DNA of 22,392 nt, from the IMG/VR virus record IMGVR_UViG_3300006099_000006, positions 1-22,392 of that record; one strand, written 5' to 3'. How positions within the stretch are numbered: the first letter of the stretch is position 1; every line of letters starts with the position of its first letter. Below the pieces are notes generated by a model. The model ran no database searches. It was not told where the DNA came from and saw nothing but the letters and a program-made list of their open reading frames with translations. The DNA comes from a virus. Taxonomy: Duplodnaviria > Heunggongvirae > Uroviricota > Caudoviricetes. The translations under genes and the position numbers were made by a program. Positions 8,401-22,392 of the stretch are shown here, in pieces.

Positions 8401-11400
8401 GCGGCACAGTCCCTTTCTGAGCTTCAGTCCACACTCCCCAATGTTGGGGGCGTGATGGAATTCTTCACCGGAAGCAACGATCTTGGCAAATTCTCTGAGG
8501 GGTTGATCCCCTTCGGGAAAGCTATGAAATCCTACAGCGATTCTGTCGTTGGGATCAACGCTGAAGCCATCACAGCTTCCGCTACCGCCGCCAAATCATT
8601 GGCAGAACTCCAATCCGTTCTCCCGAATGTGGGAGGGGTAATGGAGTTCTTCACCGGCGGAAACGATCTTGGCACATTTGCCACTGGTATTATCCCGTTC
8701 GGCGCGGCTATGAAATCCTATGGGAATGCTGTCGCCGACATCAATGCGGAAGCAATCACCGCATCCGCGATTGCAGCCCAGTCCCTCGCACAGCTCCAGA
8801 CCACCCTTCCGCAGATCGGCGGTGTGATGGAGTTCTTCACTGGACGTTATGACCTTACCGCCTTTGGCGAAGCATTGATTCCCTTCGGGGAAGCCATGCA
8901 CTCCTATGGAACTGCTGTAGCTGGTATCGATGCCGGCGCAGTAGCAAATTCGGCCACCGCAGGTAAGGCGCTTGTGGAGCTGGCAAATACTCTTCCCAAA
9001 TGCGGAGGTTTGGCGGAGGTCTTCACGGGAAGCAACAGCTTGGCCGGATTCGGCGATGAAATCGTCCAGTTCGGTAAAGATCTCTCCGCTTACGCCAACG
9101 CCATCAAAGATGTGAAACCCGAGGCGGTAACCGCCTCCGCAAATGCGGCGCAAGCCCTGTCTAATCTGGCCACAGGTCTGCCGGATAGCAGCCTCTTTGA
9201 CAAATGGTTTGGCGGAGATCAAACACTCGCCTCCTTTGGCAAAGATATTTCCTCCTTCGGGGAAAGCATGGGAAGCTACTATTCCAAGGTTTCCAGCATC
9301 GACCTGACAAAGCTGTCCGGGGTTGTGACCCAGGTTTGGTCCCTTGTGGATCTGGCCAAGGGTATTCAAGGACTTGACACCAGCGGATTCAATTCATTCG
9401 GGACTGCCCTTAAGACCATGGCGAATACGGGAATCAACGAATTTGTTTCGGCGTTCTCGAATTCGACCACCGAAGTCAATAAGGCTGTTCAAGGGATGTT
9501 GAGTTCGGTAAGCACCTCTATCTCGAATGGCAAGACCCTCACGACACCCGGAATAGAATCGGTGATGAAGTCGCTGGCTGACATCGTTACGAAGAAAGCC
9601 ACCGAAATCAACAATTCCGTCACGACGATGATGAAGGGCGTCGCCACTACTATTCGCAATAGCGCCCCATCTGTCCAAAATGCCACACGCACTGTCTTCT
9701 CCAATGCGGTCAATGTCCTTAACGGCATGAAAGGTCAGTTTGAAAATGCTGGCCAAAACGCCGGCCAGGGCTTTGTGAACGGTATCAACTCCAAGATGGG
9801 CGCTTCGACAGTGGCCGGCCGCAATCTGGGCTTGGCCGCCTTGAATGCTGCAAAGAAGGCACTGGACAGTCATTCACCTTCTCGTGAATTCATCTATCTG
9901 GGTGAAAACATGGGTGAGGGTTTGGCAATCGGAGCCGAGAACAGCATTGTGCCTGCTTCTCAGGCCACTTCCAAGATGATCGGCGAAGTTCTCAAGGTAA
10001 GCTCCAAGGGAATCGAGGCGTTCCAGAAGTGGGCCGAGGAAAAGAAGTATTATGGCGAGTTAAGTCTGAAAGATGAGCTTGCCGGGTACGAAAATCTGCA
10101 ACAGAAGTACAAAGCTGGCAGCGAAGAGCGCATCAAGATCGACCGCGAGGTTTACCGGATTCAAAATGAACTGGTTGCGTCTACCTATCAGGCCTCTATC
10201 GATTGGATCGAGGAGCAGAAGTATTACAACCAGCTCAGCACCCAGGAAGAGCTTGAGGCCTATGAGCGGATGCAGCAGCGGTACATCGAGGGCAGTGAGG
10301 AACGTAAGAAGATCGACCGCGAGGTCTATGCCCTCCGGAAACAGCTCATGGATGAGTCCTATCAGCATTCCATGGACTGGATCGAGGAGGAGAAGTATTA
10401 CAATCGCATGAGCCTTTCTGACGAGCTCGCCGCCTATAAGCGGGTACAGAGCCGTTATGCCAAAGGCACCGACGAGCGCAAGAAGATGGATCGTGAGGTC
10501 TACCGTCTTGAGCAGGAGATCTATGAGGCTCAGAAGCAGTACATCGCCGATGTTCAGAGTGTTCAGGCGACGGCAAATCAGAAACGCCTTGATCTCGAAG
10601 AGGAGTATGCCGATAAGGTCAAATCCATCAACGAGAAATTGGCGTCGGACATCAAGTCACTGAACGACAAGTACCAAAGTGCCCTTGAATCTCGCACCAA
10701 TAGCCTTTACCAATCTTATGGCCTCTTTGATGAGGTTAAAGAGCGGGAAGAGGTAAACGGCGAAGCCCTGATGAAGAACCTGACGGATCAGGTGCAGGAG
10801 TTTGGCGAGTGGCAGGATATTTTGGACAGTCTCTCGGCGAGAGGTCTGGATTCCGAGCTGATCGGCGAGCTTCAGGAGATGGGCCCCTCCGCAATCGCGG
10901 AGTTGAAGGCTCTTAATTCCATGAGTGACTCCGAGTTGGAGAAGTATGCCGCTCTTTGGTCCATCAAACATGCCCAGGCCCGTGAACAGGCCGTCGGCGA
11001 GTTAGAGGGCCTTCGTATTGAAACCCAAAACAACATTGCTCAGCTTCGTGTCGAGGCCGAGCGAGAGCTGGATGACTATCGCGCTGTCTGGCAGACCAAG
11101 ATGAACCAGGTCACCATCGATGCTAACGCGGAGCTGGAACAGCTTCGGAAAGCATTTGGTGAGAAGGTCGGTCTTATCAAGAAGGACACCGAAAAAGAAA
11201 CGCAGGAGATGGTCGATGCCGCTCAAGCGATTCTTCAGGAAGCCGGATGGGATGAGACTGGCAAACAAATCGTGACCGGAATCAAGAATGGCGTCGAGGA
11301 AGAGAAACCTGCGTTCCTGGATGCCCTGACACAAATGGCCCTGGAGGGTGTTCAGGCGGTTAAGACCGCATGGGATGAGCATTCTCCTTCCCGGGTCTTC

Positions 11401-17242: not shown

Positions 17243-17914
17243 ATGGCAAGCTTTTTCAATCTTATCCTGGATACCCTGGCCCCTGAGTCCCTCGCCGTCA
17301 AGGTGAATAACGGGGCCCTCTTTACTTCCAGCGTCAGCGCCACCCTGGGCGTGACTATCGACGACACGGACACCACCGGCTATCAGATGAAGATCTGGGG
17401 CGTGGACGGCGTCGCTGCCGAGGAGGACGCCTCCTGGGAGAGCTTCGCCGCATCCAAGGCCATCACTCTGCCCGCCGGCGACGGCCTGAAGACCGTCAAT
17501 GTCAAGGTGCGGGATAACGTCGGCAATGAGACGGCCGCCGAGACCGCCTCCATCACCCTGGTATCCGATGTGCCCGTGGTCACTGTCACCGGCCCCGACA
17601 AGACCACCATCTCCAAGATCAACGGCTTCGACAGCGCTGTCATCTCCTTCATGGCCGACGTGGCCTTCGTAGCCTACAAGGTCTGCGTCGTCCCCGCCGA
17701 GAACAGCCTGGTGGATGCCGGTACGCTCATTGGCGATACCGCCGGCAGTGTGAACACCAGCGGCTCCGCCGCCGAAGGCGAGGAGTTCGCCGCTGACACT
17801 GCAATCAACGTCACCATCAAGGGCGCCGACCTGGAGATTGCCTCCGGCGGCGATGGCACCAAGATCGTCAAGGTGTTTGTCAAGGATGCCCGTGACATCT
17901 GGAGCGTAGCCTGA
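17243..17914 (+). CDS. Two-domain Ig-like/beta-sandwich virion protein, 223 aa
   Basis: SD AAGGAG at 17228-17233. Beta-rich and T/V/A-rich. Internal repeat GDGLKTVNVKVRD / GDGTKIVKVFVKD. Confidence 0.62.
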   Translation: MASFFNLILDTLAPESLAVKVNNGALFTSSVSATLGVTIDDTDTTGYQMKIWGVDGVAAEEDASWESFAASKAITLPAGDGLKTVNVKVRDNVGNETAAETASITLVSDVPVVTVTGPDKTTISKINGFDSAVISFMADVAFVAYKVCVVPAENSLVDAGTLIGDTAGSVNTSGSAAEGEEFAADTAINVTIKGADLEIASGGDGTKIVKVFVKDARDIWSVA

Positions 17915-18285
17915 TGGGAGCACCGAACCTGACTTTCTCCGTCACCGGGAACAAGCTCTCCGCGGTTAGCGGGTTCGACAAAATCACTGTGTCCTTTCAG
18001 ACGGACGCACCGTACAAAGCATTCGAGTGCCGCGCGACAAAGTCAGGGGAGGCATGGGGAAGGGGGAAGGGCTCGCTGGTTGCGTCCTTCTCCCAAACCC
18101 CGGCAGACACCCCCCGGCAGTTCGACATCTTTGACGAGTATCTGCTGAACGGGGATGGCGAGTACCGGATCGGCCTCTATGTCCAGGGGGAGGACGGAGC
18201 TTGGAATGACAACTGCGGTTTCGTTCCCTCCGGCTCCTCCGGATTGAGGACGGCTGACGGGAAGATATTTATGTGCATGAGGTGA
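17914..18285 (+). CDS. Single beta-sandwich protein, paralogous to domain 2 of the upstream gene, 123 aa
   Basis: TGATG coupling. LSAVSGFDKITVSFQTDAPY...GDGEYRIGLYVQ...W matches ISKINGFDSAVISFMADVAF...GDGTKIVKVFVK...W. Confidence 0.6.
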   Translation: MGAPNLTFSVTGNKLSAVSGFDKITVSFQTDAPYKAFECRATKSGEAWGRGKGSLVASFSQTPADTPRQFDIFDEYLLNGDGEYRIGLYVQGEDGAWNDNCGFVPSGSSGLRTADGKIFMCMR

Positions 18286-18289
18286 GCAT

Positions 18290-18706
18290 ATGGCAACAGT
18301 AGACGAACGCCTCGCAGCACTGGAAGCAAAAGTCGGAGGCCCCGATGAAGAGCTGTATAACAGCCGTCATACCGGGGAGCAGATCGACAACGCTGTCACC
18401 TCGGTGCGGAATAACGAGACGGCCTGGAGCGGCAAGGCAGAGAAAGGGGCCCCTGTGACCCTGGTTCTGAGCAAGGATACCTGGGATGAGACTCAGAAGA
18501 CCCAGACCCTTACCAATCCGCTCCTTGTGGCCAGCAGCGCTTACCGCTATCTCGTGGCCCCTTCCACGAGTGACAGCACCGCTTACGGTAACGCGGGCAT
18601 CAAAGCAGACGACATCACAACCACCGGCCAGATCACATTCCACTGTGAAATGCCCCCTGAGGCTGACCTGACCGTGGAAATCGTGCGACTGGAGGTACAA
18701 ACATGA
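18290..18706 (+). CDS. Small tail-fibre adaptor-like protein, 138 aa
   Basis: SD GAGGTGA upstream. N-terminal YNSRHTGEQIDNAV. The C-terminal approx 80 aa resemble the C-terminus of 15760-17046. Stop overlaps the DGR target start (ATGA). Confidence 0.6.
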   Translation: MATVDERLAALEAKVGGPDEELYNSRHTGEQIDNAVTSVRNNETAWSGKAEKGAPVTLVLSKDTWDETQKTQTLTNPLLVASSAYRYLVAPSTSDSTAYGNAGIKADDITTTGQITFHCEMPPEADLTVEIVRLEVQT

Positions 18707-21666
18707 GTAACAACACGGACGTCGGAAAGGTGTTCAACATCATGTCCGGCACCGGTGGCAGAGACGGTTCTCTCCGGTTGGAGAGTTTGGCCGTGACCAA
18801 GCCGCCCAACAAAACAACCTACAAGTCCGGCGAGACCTTTGACCCCACCGGCATGGTGGTTACCGGCAGCTATGCCTTTGGCCTGACTTCTGATGTGACG
18901 GGCTATACCGTCTCTCCCTCCGTGCTGACGGATGGCGTTTCGGAGGTCACGATCACCTATACCGAGGGACGGGTCACCAAGACCGCCAGCACTCCCGTGA
19001 CGGTGGAAAAGGTGCTGACCGCTATTGAGGTGACTACTCCGCCCACCAAGACCAGCTACAACTATCTGGAGAGCTTCGACCCCGCCGGCATGGTGGTGAC
19101 CGCGAAGTTCTCGGACGGTTCCAGCGCCCCGGCGACGGGCTACACTTACCCCGATACGGCCTTCTCCACGCTGGGGAGCCAGCCGGTGAACATCGGATAC
19201 ACCTATGAGGGCGTGAGCCGGGAGACTACGCTCTCTGTGACGGTCAACGCCATCTCGGTTCCCATCCCTACCCAGGATGGAACTATCTCCTATACCGGCT
19301 TGGAGCAGACCCCTACCTGGAACAACTTCGATTCCGTCAAAATGGCGGTAACCGGAGACACTTCCGGGGTCAACGCCAAGGACAACTACTCGGTGACGTT
19401 CACTCTCGTCTATGGCTATGTCTTCCCCGATGGGAAGAATGAGGCCACGGTGAAGTGGGCGATCAACCGGGCGGTCATCGAGGCCCTGCCCACACAGAAG
19501 GACATCCCCGCCGCTGACGGCGGCGTCAAGTCCCCCTCCTGGGATGGCTACGACCCGGTGAAGATGACCATCGGCGCGGATCGTTCCGGCACTGCCGCCG
19601 GCGACTATACCGCCACATTCACGCCTACCCCCAACTACCAGTGGTGGGACGGCACGACCGGGGCCAAGAGCGTTACCTGGAGCATCGCCAGCGTCATCGT
19701 CCCCATCCCGACCCAGAAGAACATCCCCACCTATGACGGGTCCAACAAGACCCCCGAGTGGGATGACTTCGACACCGACCACTGCACTGTGACGGTCACT
19801 CCCGCGGTCAACGCCGGGGAGTACAGCGCCACATTCAGCCTGCTGGAGGGGCTGTGGGAAGACGGCACCACGGGCGGCAAGACGGTGAAGTGGCGGATCA
19901 ACCGGGCGATCCTTGCCAAGGTCCCCGAACAGAGCGGAACCCCGGTGTATGACGGCAACCCCAAGACCCCGACCTGGGACACCTCTTACGAAAGCGCCAA
20001 GATGACAGTGAGCGTGGAGGCCAAGACCCTGGCCGGGACGGACTATCCCGCCGAGTTCACCCCCACGTCCAACTATCAGTGGTGGGATGGCACAACCGGG
20101 GCCAAGAGCGCCACCTGGAGTATTGCCCGGGCGACTATCACCACGGTTCCCAGTCAGAACGGTACCCTGACCTACACCGGCAGCGAGCAGACGGTTTCGC
20201 TGAAGAACTTCGACAGCAACAAGCTCACCCTGGGCGGCACCACCAAGGGTACGAATGCCGGGGAATACAGCGCCAACGTCACCCCTACGGCCAACTACCA
20301 GTGGAGCGACGGCACCACAACGGCGAAGACCGTGAAGTGGAGCATCGGCAAGGCGGCGGGCAGTCTGAGCCTGAGCGCATCCGCTGTGACGCTGAACCGC
20401 ACCACCCTGAGCAAGACCGTCACGGTAACCAAGGCGGGCGACGGCGCTATCTCCGTCACATCCAGCAACACTGCTGTGGCAACGGCTACGGTGAGTGGGG
20501 CAACCATCACGATCAATCATGTCAACCAGGCCAGCGGTACGGCGACCATCACCGTCAAGGTGGCGGCCGGTACGAACCATGAGGCCCCTGCCAACAAGAC
20601 CATCACGGTGACGGCCCAGTTCACCACCATCTACGGCGTGGAATGGGACTGGACCAGCAGCGGACCTACCAAGGGCACCCGTACCGACGCGGCGGCCGGG
20701 TTCAGCGACCCCAATCCCGCTGTGAACAACGGCACCGGCAGCTCTCCCTTTGATAGCATCATGCCCTGGGCGGGAATGGTCAAGGAGACCCGCGCCGGCG
20801 GCGTTGAGGTTAAAGAGCCCAAGTATTGGTTCAAGTGGACCAAGACGGGGAAGAAGCTGAAACTGCAAATCGCCGACGGTCCTGTGGAAGGGTTCCATGT
20901 GGACCCGGTGAACATGGACCGGGGCGACGGCCTGGGCGAGCTGGACTTCTCCTATATCGGACGGTATCACTGCGCCTCGGGCACCTACAAGTCGGAGACC
21001 AACAAGGCCCAGCAGGTGAACATCACCAGGAGCTCGGCCCGTACCAGTATTCACAATCTGGGGGCTAACTTCTGGCAGATCGACTTCGCCCAGTTCTGGT
21101 ATGTTGGGATGCTGTTCCTGGTGGAATTTGCCGATACCAATGGCGAACGCATTGGCCGTGGCTGTTCTGCCGGCGGCTCCAAGGAGAACAACGGCAAGAC
21201 GGACGCTATGAAGTACCACACCGGTACCACAGCGGCCAACCGGGACAGCTATGGCTACACCCAGTACCGGAACATTGAGGGCTGGTGGGATAACGTGTTT
21301 GACTGGATGGACGGTTGTTATTACAACAATAATGGCCTGAATGTCATCAAGAATCCTAACCAGTTCAGCGATAACGCCAATGGTGTTCTGGTTGGTAAAC
21401 CTGTCGGCGGGTGGACATCCGATCTCGCCATTCCGACCCAAGCCGGTTTCGAGTGGGCGGTGTATCAATGTGCCGCTGCTGGCAGTGCCACAACATATGT
21501 CCCGGATTACTGGTACTTTAACGGTGGTTACCCGTGCCTGCGCCATGGCGGTTGCTATGGCCAGTACCAGTATTGTGGGCCGTTCTGCGTCGACTACAGC
21601 AGTGCGTCGGACACGGGCGGCAGCATCGGCTGTCGCCTCCAGGAACGCCCGCCGAAGGCAGCGTGA
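18703..21666 (+). CDS. DGR target: Ig-repeat adhesin/receptor-binding protein with C-terminal C-type-lectin-fold variable domain, 987 aa
   Basis: Two Big_3-like domains (TKPPNKTTYKSGETFDPTGMVVT; TTPPTKTSY...FDPAGMVVT), five approx 73-aa repeats and a Big_2-like domain (SSNTAVATATVSG). The C-terminal domain has NIEGWWDNVFDWMDG and ends in the VR (...IGCRL), as in CLec-fold DGR targets. SD GGAGGT upstream. Confidence 0.9.
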   Translation: MSNNTDVGKVFNIMSGTGGRDGSLRLESLAVTKPPNKTTYKSGETFDPTGMVVTGSYAFGLTSDVTGYTVSPSVLTDGVSEVTITYTEGRVTKTASTPVTVEKVLTAIEVTTPPTKTSYNYLESFDPAGMVVTAKFSDGSSAPATGYTYPDTAFSTLGSQPVNIGYTYEGVSRETTLSVTVNAISVPIPTQDGTISYTGLEQTPTWNNFDSVKMAVTGDTSGVNAKDNYSVTFTLVYGYVFPDGKNEATVKWAINRAVIEALPTQKDIPAADGGVKSPSWDGYDPVKMTIGADRSGTAAGDYTATFTPTPNYQWWDGTTGAKSVTWSIASVIVPIPTQKNIPTYDGSNKTPEWDDFDTDHCTVTVTPAVNAGEYSATFSLLEGLWEDGTTGGKTVKWRINRAILAKVPEQSGTPVYDGNPKTPTWDTSYESAKMTVSVEAKTLAGTDYPAEFTPTSNYQWWDGTTGAKSATWSIARATITTVPSQNGTLTYTGSEQTVSLKNFDSNKLTLGGTTKGTNAGEYSANVTPTANYQWSDGTTTAKTVKWSIGKAAGSLSLSASAVTLNRTTLSKTVTVTKAGDGAISVTSSNTAVATATVSGATITINHVNQASGTATITVKVAAGTNHEAPANKTITVTAQFTTIYGVEWDWTSSGPTKGTRTDAAAGFSDPNPAVNNGTGSSPFDSIMPWAGMVKETRAGGVEVKEPKYWFKWTKTGKKLKLQIADGPVEGFHVDPVNMDRGDGLGELDFSYIGRYHCASGTYKSETNKAQQVNITRSSARTSIHNLGANFWQIDFAQFWYVGMLFLVEFADTNGERIGRGCSAGGSKENNGKTDAMKYHTGTTAANRDSYGYTQYRNIEGWWDNVFDWMDGCYYNNNGLNVIKNPNQFSDNANGVLVGKPVGGWTSDLAIPTQAGFEWAVYQCAAAGSATTYVPDYWYFNGGYPCLRHGGCYGQYQYCGPFCVDYSSASDTGGSIGCRLQERPPKAA
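19246..20346 (+). repeat. Five approx 73-aa beta-sandwich repeats in the DGR target
   Basis: Pattern PxQ...YxG...PxW...D..K.T......AG.Y...F...Y.W.DGTT..K.V.W.I occurs five times. Confidence 0.85.
21497..21640 (+). repeat. DGR variable repeat (VR), approx aa 932-979 of the target
   Basis: Ungapped 144-bp match to 21837-21980 (offset 340). The 19 mismatches are all opposite TR adenines: 13 G, 5 T, 1 C. Confidence 0.97.
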
Positions 21667-21724
21667 CTACTCCCCTGAGGAGGTAGGGGTGCAGGGGTGA
21701 GGGGGCCGCAGCCCCTTCCCCCGC
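21625..21724 (+). promoter_or_regulatory. Putative IMH region and cis-acting DNA hairpins downstream of the VR
   Basis: GC-rich ATCGGCTGTCGC is shared by the VR and TR ends, and the sequences diverge after 21640/21980. Imperfect hairpin ACGC-cc-GCC-[GAA]-GGC-a-GCGT at 21645-21664 and GGGGC-[CGCA]-GCCCC at 21702-21715. Confidence 0.55.
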
Positions 21725-21836
21725 ATTCCCGTTTACGAAATTCAAAATGGAGTAATTTTACTCCTGAAATAGGAGAGGGCGGAGGCTGAAAAGTACCCCC
21801 CCCCTATTTTTCAGGGGGTCGACTGTGCAGCAGACG

Positions 21837-21980
21837 ATGTCCCGGATAACTGGAACTTTAACGGTGGTAACCCGTGCCTGCACCATGGCGGTTACTATAA
21901 CCAGAACCAGAATTATGGGCCGTTCTACGTCAACTACAACAGTGCGTCGAACACGAACGACAACATCGGCTGTCGCATCC
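21837..21980 (+). ncRNA. DGR template repeat (TR)
   Basis: In the VR frame it reads (D)VPDNWNFNGGNPCLHHGGYYNQNQNYGPFYVNYNSASNTNDNIGCRI. It has 40 adenines and 12 AAY codons, and no adenine at a third codon position. Confidence 0.96.
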
Positions 21981-22176
21981 TTGATAAGCCATAGGCTAAC
22001 CCTCCATTTGGTAGTAAGGGGTCCTCGCCCTTTCTATATCGCACGGTTGACCGCCCAGCTCTTGCTGAAGATGAGCCGTCAGGACACAGCTTAGTACACT
22101 TCGGGCCGGGTCTCGCCTCGGAACACCCCGCGGCGCTGGAACAGTTGTGAGGCTACAAGGAGGAAAAGTATCCCTG
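21981..22176 (+). ncRNA. TR-RT spacer, predicted structured part of the DGR RNA
   Basis: No credible ORF. Nested pairings AGCC(22074-77)/GGCT(22151-54) and CACAGCT(22085-91)/AGTTGTG(22143-49). The RT SD AAGGAGG is at 22157-22163. Confidence 0.55.
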
Positions 22177-22392
22177 ATGAAACGAGTTAGAGTTTACCAA
22201 CAAATCCGCTCCGAGGAGAACCTGCGCCTGGCCATCCAAGAGGTCTGTGCCAGTCACCGGCGCAACGGCGACCATAGCCTGAACAAGAAGGTGCTGGAGA
22301 TCGAGGCCGATCTGGATGACTATGTGAAGAAACTCGACAAGTTCATCCAAGACCTGGTGAGCGGAGACGCGCATATGAACAAACCCATCAAG
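22177..22392 (+). CDS. DGR reverse transcriptase, N-terminal 72 aa (3'-truncated; absent from the ORF track)
   Basis: MKRVRVYQQIRSEENLRLAIQEVCASHRRNGDHSLNKKVLEIEADLDDYVKKLDKFIQDLVSGDAHMNKPIK matches the MKR...Y..I.S.ENL.LA N-terminus typical of DGR/group II-type RTs. It has an SD and lies directly after the TR. The catalytic YxDD motif is outside the window. Confidence 0.83.
   Translation, partial: MKRVRVYQQIRSEENLRLAIQEVCASHRRNGDHSLNKKVLEIEADLDDYVKKLDKFIQDLVSGDAHMNKPIK

Follow-up and report, generated by a model that had tools for sequence, protein, structure and literature searches.

A DGR with a QMDN reverse transcriptase and no accessory gene, apparently still diversifying, in a temperate phage of mouse-gut Oscillospiraceae

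Results

We analyzed a stretch of 22,392 nucleotides (the window) from the 86-kb genome, rated 100% complete, of a temperate phage of mouse-gut Oscillospiraceae. In all probability, the window leads into a complete single-target diversity-generating retroelement (DGR) at the end of the tail module, with the layout target gene with variable repeat (VR), template repeat (TR) and reverse transcriptase (RT) gene, no accessory gene, and a still active RT of QMDN type that works without Avd. The anatomy of the element, the adenine specificity of its repeats, an intact RT gene under purifying selection, the modelled fold of the target, RNA covariation, and differences between samples that fell only on VR sites opposite TR adenines carry this finding.

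Target gene and repeats

The protein-coding parts and the repeats of the element were as follows.

18703–21666, + strand: DGR target gene (P0001, 987 aa), the final gene of the tail module; from the ORF list
21497–21640, + strand: VR; mutable part 21508–21623; 36 of 40 A positions varied among nine VRs (the window and eight close relatives)
21624–21640, + strand: VR 3' end, IMH-like; GC-rich and invariant; fixed C at 21637, where the TR has A
21837–21980, + strand: TR; 40 adenines, none at codon position 3; 11 AAC codons
22177–22392 in the window (full gene 22177–23352 of the genome), + strand: DGR RT gene (P0002, 391 aa); intact ORF

The VR and TR aligned over 144 bp without gaps and differed at 19 positions, all 19 of which lay opposite TR adenines (12 G, 6 T and 1 C on the VR side). 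Every number and position that the preliminary description had given for this alignment was reproduced. When 19 differences were placed randomly in 144 positions with 40 A sites, the probability that all fell on A sites was ~5e-13. In the frame of the target ORF, 16 of the TR adenines were at codon position 1 and 24 at position 2, and no A-to-N change could create a stop codon; the recount thus agreed with the earlier one. The homology ended abruptly at both flanks, and the VR, which stopped 26 nt before the target stop codon, was the only partner of the TR in the whole 86-kb genome. Among relatives with differing VRs, the TR was almost unchanged.

The 3' end of the VR differed from the matching TR stretch only by the C/A pair at 21637, and the homology stopped immediately beyond. 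Because the window shares this difference with all eight of the closest related loci to which it was compared, the difference is, judging from the alignments, most likely an IMH/IMH* marker that did not arise by mutagenesis. All 19 mismatches had been described as lying at TR adenines; this was upheld, but the last one most likely belongs to the marker. Since the last A is fixed and A-to-C changes were nearly absent from the clade, the theoretical repertoire of 4^40 variants proposed previously was too large, and a figure of ~3^38 to 3^39 (1e18 to 4e18) variants, spread over 26 codons, is closer to reality.

The genes upstream of the target encoded a tape-measure protein and Prophage_tail/S74 tail proteins. 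The target itself matched the profiles of PHROG 5302 'tail protein' (E 3.9e-35) and phrog_37900 (E 5.5e-124). Its N-terminal part contained Ig-like repeats (Pfam Big_3, E 1.5e-9), and its DNA consisted of repeated units of ~216–222 nt. The VR was carried by the C-terminal ~340 aa, a C-type-lectin/FGE-like domain for which a sequence-level search of Pfam and PDB gave no match. An AF2 model of residues 650–987 reached a pLDDT of 91.2 and a pTM of 0.92, and the best Foldseek matches of the modelled domain were the DGR variable proteins TaqVP of Thermus aquaticus (5vf4, E 6e-9), Mtd (1yu4) and TvpA (2y3c), followed by FGE. Because the best structural matches were DGR variable proteins, the modelled domain was assigned a C-type-lectin/FGE fold. 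It has this fold in common with TaqVP, Mtd and TvpA but shares only 10–12% sequence identity with them, and within the 987-aa tail protein it is preceded by a long array of Ig-like repeats. Gene position and modelled fold suggested that the target is a tail-fibre-like, receptor-binding virion protein, which is compatible with the virion adhesin named in the preliminary description.

No PF05635 match (avd) was detected in the 86-kb genome, and the small ORFs flanking the element were acidic (pI 4.1–5.2) and matched no family. The element therefore carried none of the accessory genes avd, HRDC, MSL and CH1, which are not universal in DGRs. According to Wu et al. 2018 (PMC5758913), DGRs free of accessory genes (architecture A) made up 29% of the survey, and an Avd-independent variant of retrohoming was proposed; the present element shares its gene order and its lack of an accessory gene with the Avd-less DGRs of architecture A1 (target-TR-RT) and 'Lineage 3' described there.

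Active-site motifs of the reverse transcriptase

The RT gene started 196 nt past the TR end. Only the start of an RT-like ORF had been described, and extension beyond the window showed an undisrupted ORF of 391 aa that matched PHROG 1423 'Reverse transcriptase' (E 7e-44). With a profile built from the RT and 40 relatives, Bordetella bRT ranked first among solved structures (8ub7, E 1.9e-50), above group II intron RTs. The ORF was thus a DGR-type RT, with motif A at E153-C-D155, motif B at I195-G-A-F-F-S-A201, and motif C at Q228-M-D230-N231, and two of these motifs departed from what was expected. The catalytic box was not YxDD but QMDN (residues 228–231), in which N231 aligned with bRT D216. 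Motif B retained the I, G and S of the signature [I/V/L]GxxxSQ, with A in place of Q. In some close relatives this residue was S, while distant YMDN relatives retained SQ; by this comparison, the Q was lost in the sub-clade of the present RT.

Essentially all full-length relatives, down to ~38% identity, contained QMDN or YMDN. The metal-binding Asp of motif A and the first Asp of motif C were invariant. A Glu at motif A minus 2 was present in 13 of 15 DN representatives and in 1 of 79 DD representatives, and the DN type originated at least 4–5 times on the tree. Sequence comparison places the RT within a conserved clade that has Asn for the second Asp of YxDD and Glu for the usual Lys at motif A minus 2. 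Against relatives at 88–92% identity, the dN/dS of the RT was 0.05–0.09; together with the clade-wide conservation, this value indicated that the Asn of motif C is under strong purifying selection.

We know of no RT studied so far that was not inactivated when the second Asp of YxDD was replaced. The L polymerases of non-segmented negative-strand RNA viruses, which carry a GDN motif with a natural Asn for the second motif-C Asp, are active. They are palm-domain polymerases with Asn at the same motif-C position as in the QMDN RT, but they are RNA-dependent RNA polymerases and not homologous to RT at the family level, so they serve as an analogy only. From comparative data we infer that the QMDN enzyme is active. 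In our literature search, no paper was found that mentions YMDN or QMDN DGR RTs, and the main text of Wu et al. 2018 (PMC5758913) contains no mention of a DN catalytic box, its coupling to Glu, or a base-specific spectrum.

RNA elements and the flanking hairpin

Six further features were located between the VR and the RT gene.

21686–21729, + strand: GC-rich inverted repeat 3' of the VR; core stem 21699–21706 / 21711–21718, loop CGCA; from folds
21796–21804, + strand: C9 homopolymer in the target gene–TR spacer; length differs between samples, with one extra C in a run X1 contig
21817–21828, + strand: TR clamp, 5' strand, 8 nt upstream of the TR; pairs with 22041–22052 in the MFE fold
22011–22037, + strand: stem-loop between the TR and the 3' clamp strand; from folds; spacer segment alignable across close relatives
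22041–22052, + strand: TR clamp, 3' strand (spacer positions 61–72); positional analogue of the BPP-1 Sp strand
22056–22162, + strand: Rfam RT-18 RNA (RF03021); occupies the remaining spacer, with the RT ribosome-binding site at its end

The TR-upstream sequence paired with spacer positions 61–72, as in the cPRT-Stop duplex of BPP-1, whose Sp strand spans 59–70 (bioRxiv 10.1101/2023.10.23.563531). Covariation supported this helix across 14 loci. In 11 of the 14, the best contiguous clamp helix was at the homologous site, with many different sequences; in alignment A2, 74% of cells were paired versus 33–45% in shifted registers, and compensatory changes were observed in 11 of 12 pairs.

The RT-18 model (positions 1–84) scored 68 bits against a gathering threshold of 41.3, the E value ranging from ~3e-12 to 9e-12 with the span of sequence searched. 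This RNA lay at the corresponding position in each of the 14 related loci tested (15/15 with the window), and RNAalifold independently confirmed the covarying helices of the region. RT-18 was defined as an RNA beside RT genes, no function was given to it, and only RT-10 was tied to a DGR (Weinberg et al. 2017, PMC5737381); here, RT-18 was the TR–RT spacer of a DGR in 15/15 loci. A sigma-70 scan for a promoter of the TR transcript was negative.

The inverted repeat downstream of the VR formed an 8-bp GC stem closed by a 4-nt loop (21699–21718), 58 nt beyond the point where the VR homology ends, and it was kept with compensatory stem changes in 13/13 related loci examined. The published consensus for hairpins after the VR has a GRNA loop and a distance of 4–34 nt (PMC3240598), from which both the CGCA loop and the distance found here depart. 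By analogy, the repeat is a candidate hairpin or cruciform for target recognition; it may also be a terminator of the tail operon, and possibly nothing more.

Variation between samples and related loci

Runs were examined as assembled contigs, and the differences reported are those between samples. A run X1 contig, from another gut metagenome, was identical to the window over 21000–21652 except at 25 positions, all of which were VR sites opposite TR adenines. For 25 differences placed randomly in the 144 VR positions, the probability of this result was ~6e-18. Over 21637–21990, which includes the TR, a contig of run X1 showed one substitution and one gap. Loci L007–L010 had identical TRs and different VRs. 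The VR variation that had been proposed as a check was thus seen between contigs of independent mouse-gut samples. More broadly, 65 non-redundant loci with a DN-type RT each carried a VR/TR pair that passed a screen in which TR adenines had to account for 85% or more of the mismatches; in most of them, all mismatches or all but one or two were at A, and together they contained 36 non-A mismatches versus 1,091 substitutions at TR adenines. A cultured Oscillospiraceae isolate carried a prophage copy of the element, in which 15 of 15 mismatches fell on A sites.

These results bear on whether the element is an inactive relic, whose RT lost its function through the D-to-N change and whose VR/TR differences are left over from earlier activity. 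The QMDN box and the motif B without the Q of SQ would fit such a relic, as would the Pfam RVT_1 score of 26.6 bits, which is below the gathering cut-off of 29.6. However, the Asn was kept across the clade at the low dN/dS given above, and a decaying pair would gain non-A differences, which were rare. The identical TRs alongside different VRs, and a contig identical over 653 bases apart from 25 TR-A sites, also spoke against it, and we regard a relic as extremely improbable. The ORF was undisrupted and the VRs varied between samples, the opposite of what the preliminary description had expected of a relic.

Another explanation is that the VR is diversified in trans by a canonical DGR RT of the host or of a co-resident phage, with the QMDN protein serving only as an RNA-binding cofactor. 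The non-canonical catalytic box could be read in this way, and remote targets are possible for DGRs according to PMC5758913. Yet no second RT was found in the complete phage genome, and the prophage-bearing Oscillospiraceae isolate contained no other DGR-type RT (its other RT matches had E 8e-19 or weaker). Moreover, the QMDN/YMDN gene was in cis with a TR and RT-18 at every locus, and neither the metal-binding motif A Asp nor the first Asp of motif C varied, which makes action in trans very improbable. Based on these sequence data, the element is apparently still diversifying by means of its own RT.

Substitution spectrum of the DN clade

Substitutions at TR adenines in the DN clade were G 728, T 345 and C 18 (A-to-C ~1.6%), whereas those in the DD clade of YxDD relatives were G 81, T 53 and C 36 (A-to-C ~21%; Fisher p = 2e-20), the deficit being measured on VRs after selection and against a DD control group in which another target family is diversified. 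For AAC codons alone, outcomes with a C amounted to 13/739 in the DN clade versus 20/95 in the DD clade. The near-absence of A-to-C would correspond to a near-absence of dG insertion opposite template A.

The deficit could instead reflect selection on the displayed residues, with Tyr, Ser, Gly, Asp and Asn favoured, and not a property of the DN-type polymerase. Both features of the measurement just named leave room for this explanation, and the AAC outcomes of the DN clade were also poor in position-2 T (Ile, Phe, Val), a selection-like pattern. Nevertheless, C was deficient at both codon positions, for all six or seven C-requiring amino acids, over ~26 codons and in 65 loci. The C share of the DD clade matched that of unselected bRT cDNA, in which dG opposite A accounted for 11.6 of 51.6 percentage points of total misincorporation in vitro, or 22% (PMC7826257), and there was no C among the sample-to-sample differences of run X1. 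Selection is therefore an unlikely source of the deficit, although it keeps an appreciable chance, and a low rate of dG insertion by the DN-type RT is the reading that we prefer.

Comparison with BPP-1 and proposed mechanism

The element had been likened to the DGR of Bordetella phage BPP-1 (mtd-VR / avd / TR / brt; bRT-Avd-RNA structures 8ub7 and others), and every predicted component was present. The two systems agree in TR/VR differences restricted to A, a phage tail-fibre protein as the target, whose C-type-lectin fold (modelled here) carries the VR at its 3' end, a TR immediately upstream of the RT gene, a GC-rich constant VR 3' end, a GC hairpin downstream of the VR, a duplex of the TR-upstream sequence with spacer ~60–72, and an RT whose best solved match is bRT itself. 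The likeness did not extend to avd, which was missing; to the catalytic box, which is YMDD in bRT; to motif A minus 2, where Glu replaces bRT K136; or to motif B, which ends in SA and not SQ. Unlike BPP-1, the element also has RT-18 and not RT-10 as its spacer RNA, a hairpin with a CGCA loop at 58 nt from the VR, and a substitution spectrum nearly without A-to-C.

By analogy with BPP-1, a transcript holding the TR and its flanks would be produced, and the 12-bp helix between the TR-upstream sequence and spacer 61–72, which is supported here by covariation, would clamp the TR. The RT-18 RNA downstream of the clamp would then bind and position the RT, which, operating without Avd, would copy the TR into cDNA and misincorporate only opposite adenines, a specificity observed here; the products would be A-to-G and A-to-T with almost no A-to-C. 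Again as in BPP-1, the cDNA would replace the VR, guided by its invariant GC-rich 3' end and by the GC hairpin past the stop codon. In this way, as many as 26 codons for the binding face of the C-type-lectin-fold domain could be recoded, which would alter the receptor choice of the phage.

As a tentative explanation, which we consider possible but rather doubtful, the DN RTs may have a re-wired active site in which the lost motif-C carboxylate is replaced by the Glu at motif A minus 2, a swap made independently several times. The altered geometry would allow Avd-free work on the RT-18 scaffold and would almost exclude dG opposite A. If this is true, the phage would explore a repertoire of ~1e18 variants rich in Tyr, Ser, Gly, Asp and Asn, and not the full 15-residue code of AAC.

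The VR/TR pair and the cassette

The features of the cassette, with positions on the phage genome and on the strand as given, are as follows:
18703-21666, gene of the target protein (987 aa)
21497-21640, variable repeat (VR), near the 3' end of the target gene
21699-21718, core of a GC-rich inverted repeat downstream of the VR
21817-21828 and 22041-22052, two arms of a putative clamp helix
21837-21980, template repeat (TR)
22056-22162, RT-18 RNA (Rfam RF03021)
22177-23352, gene of the reverse transcriptase (RT) P0002

We aligned the VR with the TR over their 144 bp. As stated in the preliminary description, the alignment was gap-free, and all 19 mismatches (VR positions 21508, 21514, 21529, 21542, 21554, 21559, 21560, 21565, 21571, 21575, 21587, 21592, 21599, 21610, 21616, 21617, 21620, 21623, and 21637) were located opposite TR adenines. 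Under random placement among the 144 positions, the probability that 19 of 19 mismatches fall on the 40 A sites was ~5e-13. The earlier statements on coding were also reproduced: in the frame of the target ORF, the 40 TR adenines occupied codon positions 1 (16) and 2 (24) but never position 3, and no A-to-N change could create a stop codon. AAC accounted for 11 of the A-containing codons of the TR, and no second partner of the TR was found within the genome. The last mismatch, VR 21637 C against TR A, was the same in nine of nine loci (the window and its eight closest relatives); therefore, it most likely distinguishes IMH from IMH*, the sequences at the 3' ends of the VR and TR, rather than being a product of mutagenesis. 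The theoretical 4^40 variants proposed earlier was too high, and the repertoire was nearer 3^38 to 3^39 (1e18 to 4e18), spread over 26 codons.

The RT-like ORF reported after the TR began at 22177, preceded by GGAGG as its ribosome-binding site, and ran unbroken to 23352, encoding the 391-aa P0002, which matched PHROG 1423 'Reverse transcriptase' (E 7e-44). When P0002 alone was searched against PDB sequences by phmmer, no match was obtained; a profile of P0002 and 40 relatives was required to reach bRT, the RT of Bordetella phage BPP-1, whose structure 8ub7 was the best solved match (E 1.9e-50), with group II intron and retron RTs lower. The phage record was a single 86,392-bp virus genome, rated 100% complete, in which P0002 was the only RT. 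For Avd, the accessory protein of bRT, the family PF05635 had no match anywhere in the genome. No basic small ORF was found as an Avd candidate, since those flanking the cassette (17914-18282, 18290-18703, and 23365-23727) all had a pI of 4.2-5.0; these ORFs also gave no informative family match. In the survey of Wu et al., the target-TR-RT order with no accessory gene is called architecture A1 and accounts for 29% of diversity-generating retroelements (DGRs) (PMC5758913). The whole cassette had no megablast match among GenBank phages. Overall, the DGR observation and its interpretation were upheld, and the element is a further member of the known DGR class in a known Avd-less layout.

An unusual RT active site

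Motif C of P0002 was Q228-M-D-N231 where RTs have Y-x-D-D, and N231 was aligned to D216 of bRT. Motif B was I-G-A-F-F-S-A and had lost the final Q of [I/V/L]GxxxSQ, the signature of DGR RTs. A total of 315 RT homologues were found at E up to 1e-5. Among them, the full-length relatives with at least ~63% identity all carried QMDN with SA or SS, the homologues at 38-53% identity carried YMDN with SQ, and those at 26-31% identity had the canonical Y[VI]DD. Damage to the gene, considered as an explanation for QMDN, was rejected because QMDN/YMDN was consistent across relatives down to 38% identity.

Searching 1.84 billion cluster representatives gave 94 full-length neighbours, of which 15 had x-x-D-N (termed DN, with DD for canonical YxDD enzymes). 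The IQ-TREE analysis placed the RT of the window inside a clade of eight DN representatives (support 100/100) whose sister was DD, and the tree contained at least four or five independent DN origins. The residue two positions before the motif-A Asp was Glu (E153-x-D155 in P0002) in 13/15 DN representatives versus 1/79 DD representatives (Fisher p 5e-13); the latter mostly had Lys, as in bRT (K136). None of the 41 aligned RTs deviated at the Asp of motif A or at the first Asp of motif C. All 65 non-redundant DN loci examined had a VR/TR pair that passed our screen, in which at least 85% of mismatches had to lie at TR adenines, and this result makes a strong comparative case that DN enzymes would be functional.

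Our literature search found no paper that mentions YMDN, QMDN, YxDN, or a similar string for an RT or a DGR. Among GenBank phage records, MT838586 came closest (39.5% identity); it was unannotated and likewise carried YMDN. Judged by sequence comparison, P0002 is a conserved, apparently functional enzyme with distinctive traits: Asn replaces the second 'catalytic' Asp, a Glu that co-evolved repeatedly lies near motif A, motif B lacks SQ, and Avd is absent.

Activity of the element

Four lines of evidence indicated that the element is active: variation of the VR against the TR, contigs from other samples, selection on the RT, and a prophage in a cultured isolate. The RTs of the eight closest IMG/VR relatives were 88-91% identical to that of the window. 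Across these nine loci, the TRs were near-identical, the substitution pattern was distinct in every VR, and 36 of the 40 A positions were variable. In the related loci L007-L010, the TRs were identical and the VRs different.

Assembled contigs from four independent gut metagenomes (runs X1-X4) were then aligned to 21000-22392. Over 21000-21652, a 5.2-kb contig of X1 showed 25 differences from the window and was otherwise identical; all 25 lay at TR-A positions within 21508-21622 (P ~6e-18 for random placement among the 144 VR positions). The contigs of X3 and X4 behaved in the same way at the VR. The TR in an X1 contig had one substitution and one gap relative to the window. The refuting outcome named in the preliminary description, a disrupted RT ORF with no VR variation, was not observed: the RT ORF was undisrupted, and the VRs differed between samples at TR-A sites.

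The RT had a dN/dS of 0.05-0.09 at a dS of 0.6-1.0, indicating strong purifying selection. A cultured Oscillospiraceae isolate carried a prophage copy on a contig of 301 kb. The RT of this copy was 88% identical, and 15/15 VR/TR mismatches were at A sites; the isolate genome contained no other DGR-type RT. This copy identified the host as a mouse-gut Oscillospiraceae.

The contigs also showed differences in the interval from the target gene to the TR. The noncoding C9 homopolymer at 21796-21804 had an additional C in one X1 contig. Contigs of X1, X2, and X4 joined 21666 to 21815, skipping 148 nt, with or without other sequence between; therefore, co-occurring relatives differ from the window in the segment that follows the stop codon and precedes the TR. 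These junctions were consistent with the spacers of 161-180 nt in the related loci L003-L011, versus 196 nt in the window.

RNA and DNA signals

The RT-18 motif in the TR-RT spacer scored 68 bits versus a gathering score of 41.3. It was located directly 5' of the RT gene in 14/14 related loci, including the YVDD ones, and its covarying helices were recovered independently by RNAalifold. Weinberg et al. described RT-18 only as an RNA near RT genes, and the motif that they tied to a DGR was RT-10, not RT-18 (PMC5737381). As far as we found, the assignment of RT-18 as a DGR spacer RNA is new. At four loci of the YVDD clade (L027, L030, L041, and L044), RT-18 preceded canonical RTs, and the targets had an N-terminal Phage_tail_fib domain; beyond this domain, Pfam detected nothing on the YVDD-clade targets. 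RT-18 therefore marks a DGR lineage wider than the DN clade.

Just 5' of RT-18, positions 22041-22052 (spacer 61-72) paired with a segment 8 nt upstream of the TR. The best contiguous clamp helix was at the homologous site in 11 of 14 loci and had an internal mismatch in the other three, and the sequences were widely different. On the alignment, 74% of cells were paired versus 33-45% in shifted registers, with compensatory changes in 11/12 pairs. Lone 8-bp clamp helices were not significant against shuffles, and the support came from constant position and covariation. Pairs were counted by script, as RNAduplex gave too much noise when long loops were allowed, and the MAFFT alignment was off by one column, which hid the clamp from RNAalifold. 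The clamp is positioned like the avd:Sp 'cPRT Stop' duplex of BPP-1, at Sp 59-70 (bioRxiv 10.1101/2023.10.23.563531).

Every relative examined had the GC-rich inverted repeat after the VR, and its stem showed compensatory changes. It resembles the hairpin/cruciform required for BPP-1 retrohoming, but its loop is CGCA instead of GRNA, and it lies 58 nt from the VR instead of 4-34 (PMC3240598). The repeat could also be a terminator. Terminator-like sites within 21400-22392 were detected on the minus strand only, and a scan of the same interval found no sigma-70 promoter. In L022, a related IMG/VR contig, a tmRNA gene (9282-9604) lay ~3 kb downstream of a YMDN-type DGR, which may be the boundary of a prophage integrated at ssrA.

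Substitution spectrum

In the DN clade (65 loci), the substitutions at TR adenines were G 728, T 345, and C 18 (C 1.6%), versus G 81, T 53, and C 36 (C 21%) in 13 Y[VI]DD loci from the same search (Fisher p 2e-20). For AAC codons only, C-containing outcomes were 13/739 in DN versus 20/95 in DD loci. The simplest reading is that DN-type RTs would insert dG opposite A almost never, with the result that AAC gives mainly Tyr (211), Ser (169), Asn (124), Gly (113), and Asp (65) in the DN clade (VRs of L003-L127; n=739). For unselected bRT cDNA, dG was inserted opposite A at 11.6%, within a total misincorporation of 51.6%, and thus made up 22% of errors, and the bias of bRT shifts when the last residue of the SQ motif is changed (PMC7826257). 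Selection on the displayed residues is a possible alternative explanation for the A-to-C deficit because the DD control loci diversify a different target family.

The near-lack of A-to-C is a new observation as far as our literature search showed: no published base-specific DGR spectra were found, and 'A-to-C' matches were base-editor papers only. Minimal Tyr/Ser/Gly/Asp codes are used in synthetic antibody libraries, and the AAC outcomes of the DN clade resemble them.

The target protein

The target gene closes the tail module, downstream of genes for a 3,153-aa tape-measure protein, a Prophage_tail/Peptidase_S74 protein, and tail-fibre-like PHROG matches. The N-terminal two thirds of the target consisted of Ig-like (Big_3) repeats, which account for the 216-222-nt DNA repeats in the gene. 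The C-terminal 338 residues, which form the VR-bearing domain, had no match in Pfam, NCBIfam, or PDB sequences. We modelled this domain by AlphaFold2; with only 17 sequences the pLDDT was 38.8, and an alignment of 55 natural homologues was needed to reach a pLDDT of 91.2 and a pTM of 0.92. Foldseek matched the model to TaqVP 5vf4 (E 6e-9), Mtd 1yu4, and TvpA 2y3c, and then to formylglycine-generating enzymes (FGE) and PvdO. This grouping with DGR variable proteins places the VR in the usual C-type-lectin/FGE scaffold. From the gene position and the fold, we infer that the target is a receptor-binding tail fibre. Homologues of the domain numbered 2,722 (E up to 0.001) in the protein collection, and IMG/VR contained at least 517 homologous stretches.

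The target had 987 aa; most close homologues had 913-915 aa, and a few had 676-702 aa. The gap of 74 aa to the commonest length approximates one Ig-like repeat (array 18703-20650), so related phages seem to differ in repeat number and, with it, in stalk length. At the end of the related contig L059 (2501-3541), the target domain was 82% identical and had the window's residues YSSASDTGGSIGCR over the last part of the VR. After the VR, its coding sequence was unlike that of the window and open to the contig end; misassembly at the repeat may account for this.

Significance

To our knowledge, no natural protein diversifier is more powerful than DGRs, which are under development as directed-evolution tools. 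The DGR mechanism studies that we know of all rest on one enzyme, the Bordetella bRT, with its YMDD box and its dependence on Avd. The second motif-C Asp is considered catalytically essential. The DN clade, which is abundant in gut phages, appears from comparative data to work with Asn at that position, without Avd, using the defined small RNA RT-18, and with a narrower spectrum. The enzyme traits, the RT-18 spacer, and the A-to-C-poor spectrum set this element above an ordinary DGR. Since a cultured Oscillospiraceae isolate has a close prophage copy, the system is testable at the bench. If confirmed, these findings would provide a mutagenic RT that works as a single protein and whose spectrum is different and predictable, a function for the orphan Rfam motif RT-18, and a natural experiment on the roles of SQ in motif B and of the second Asp in motif C.
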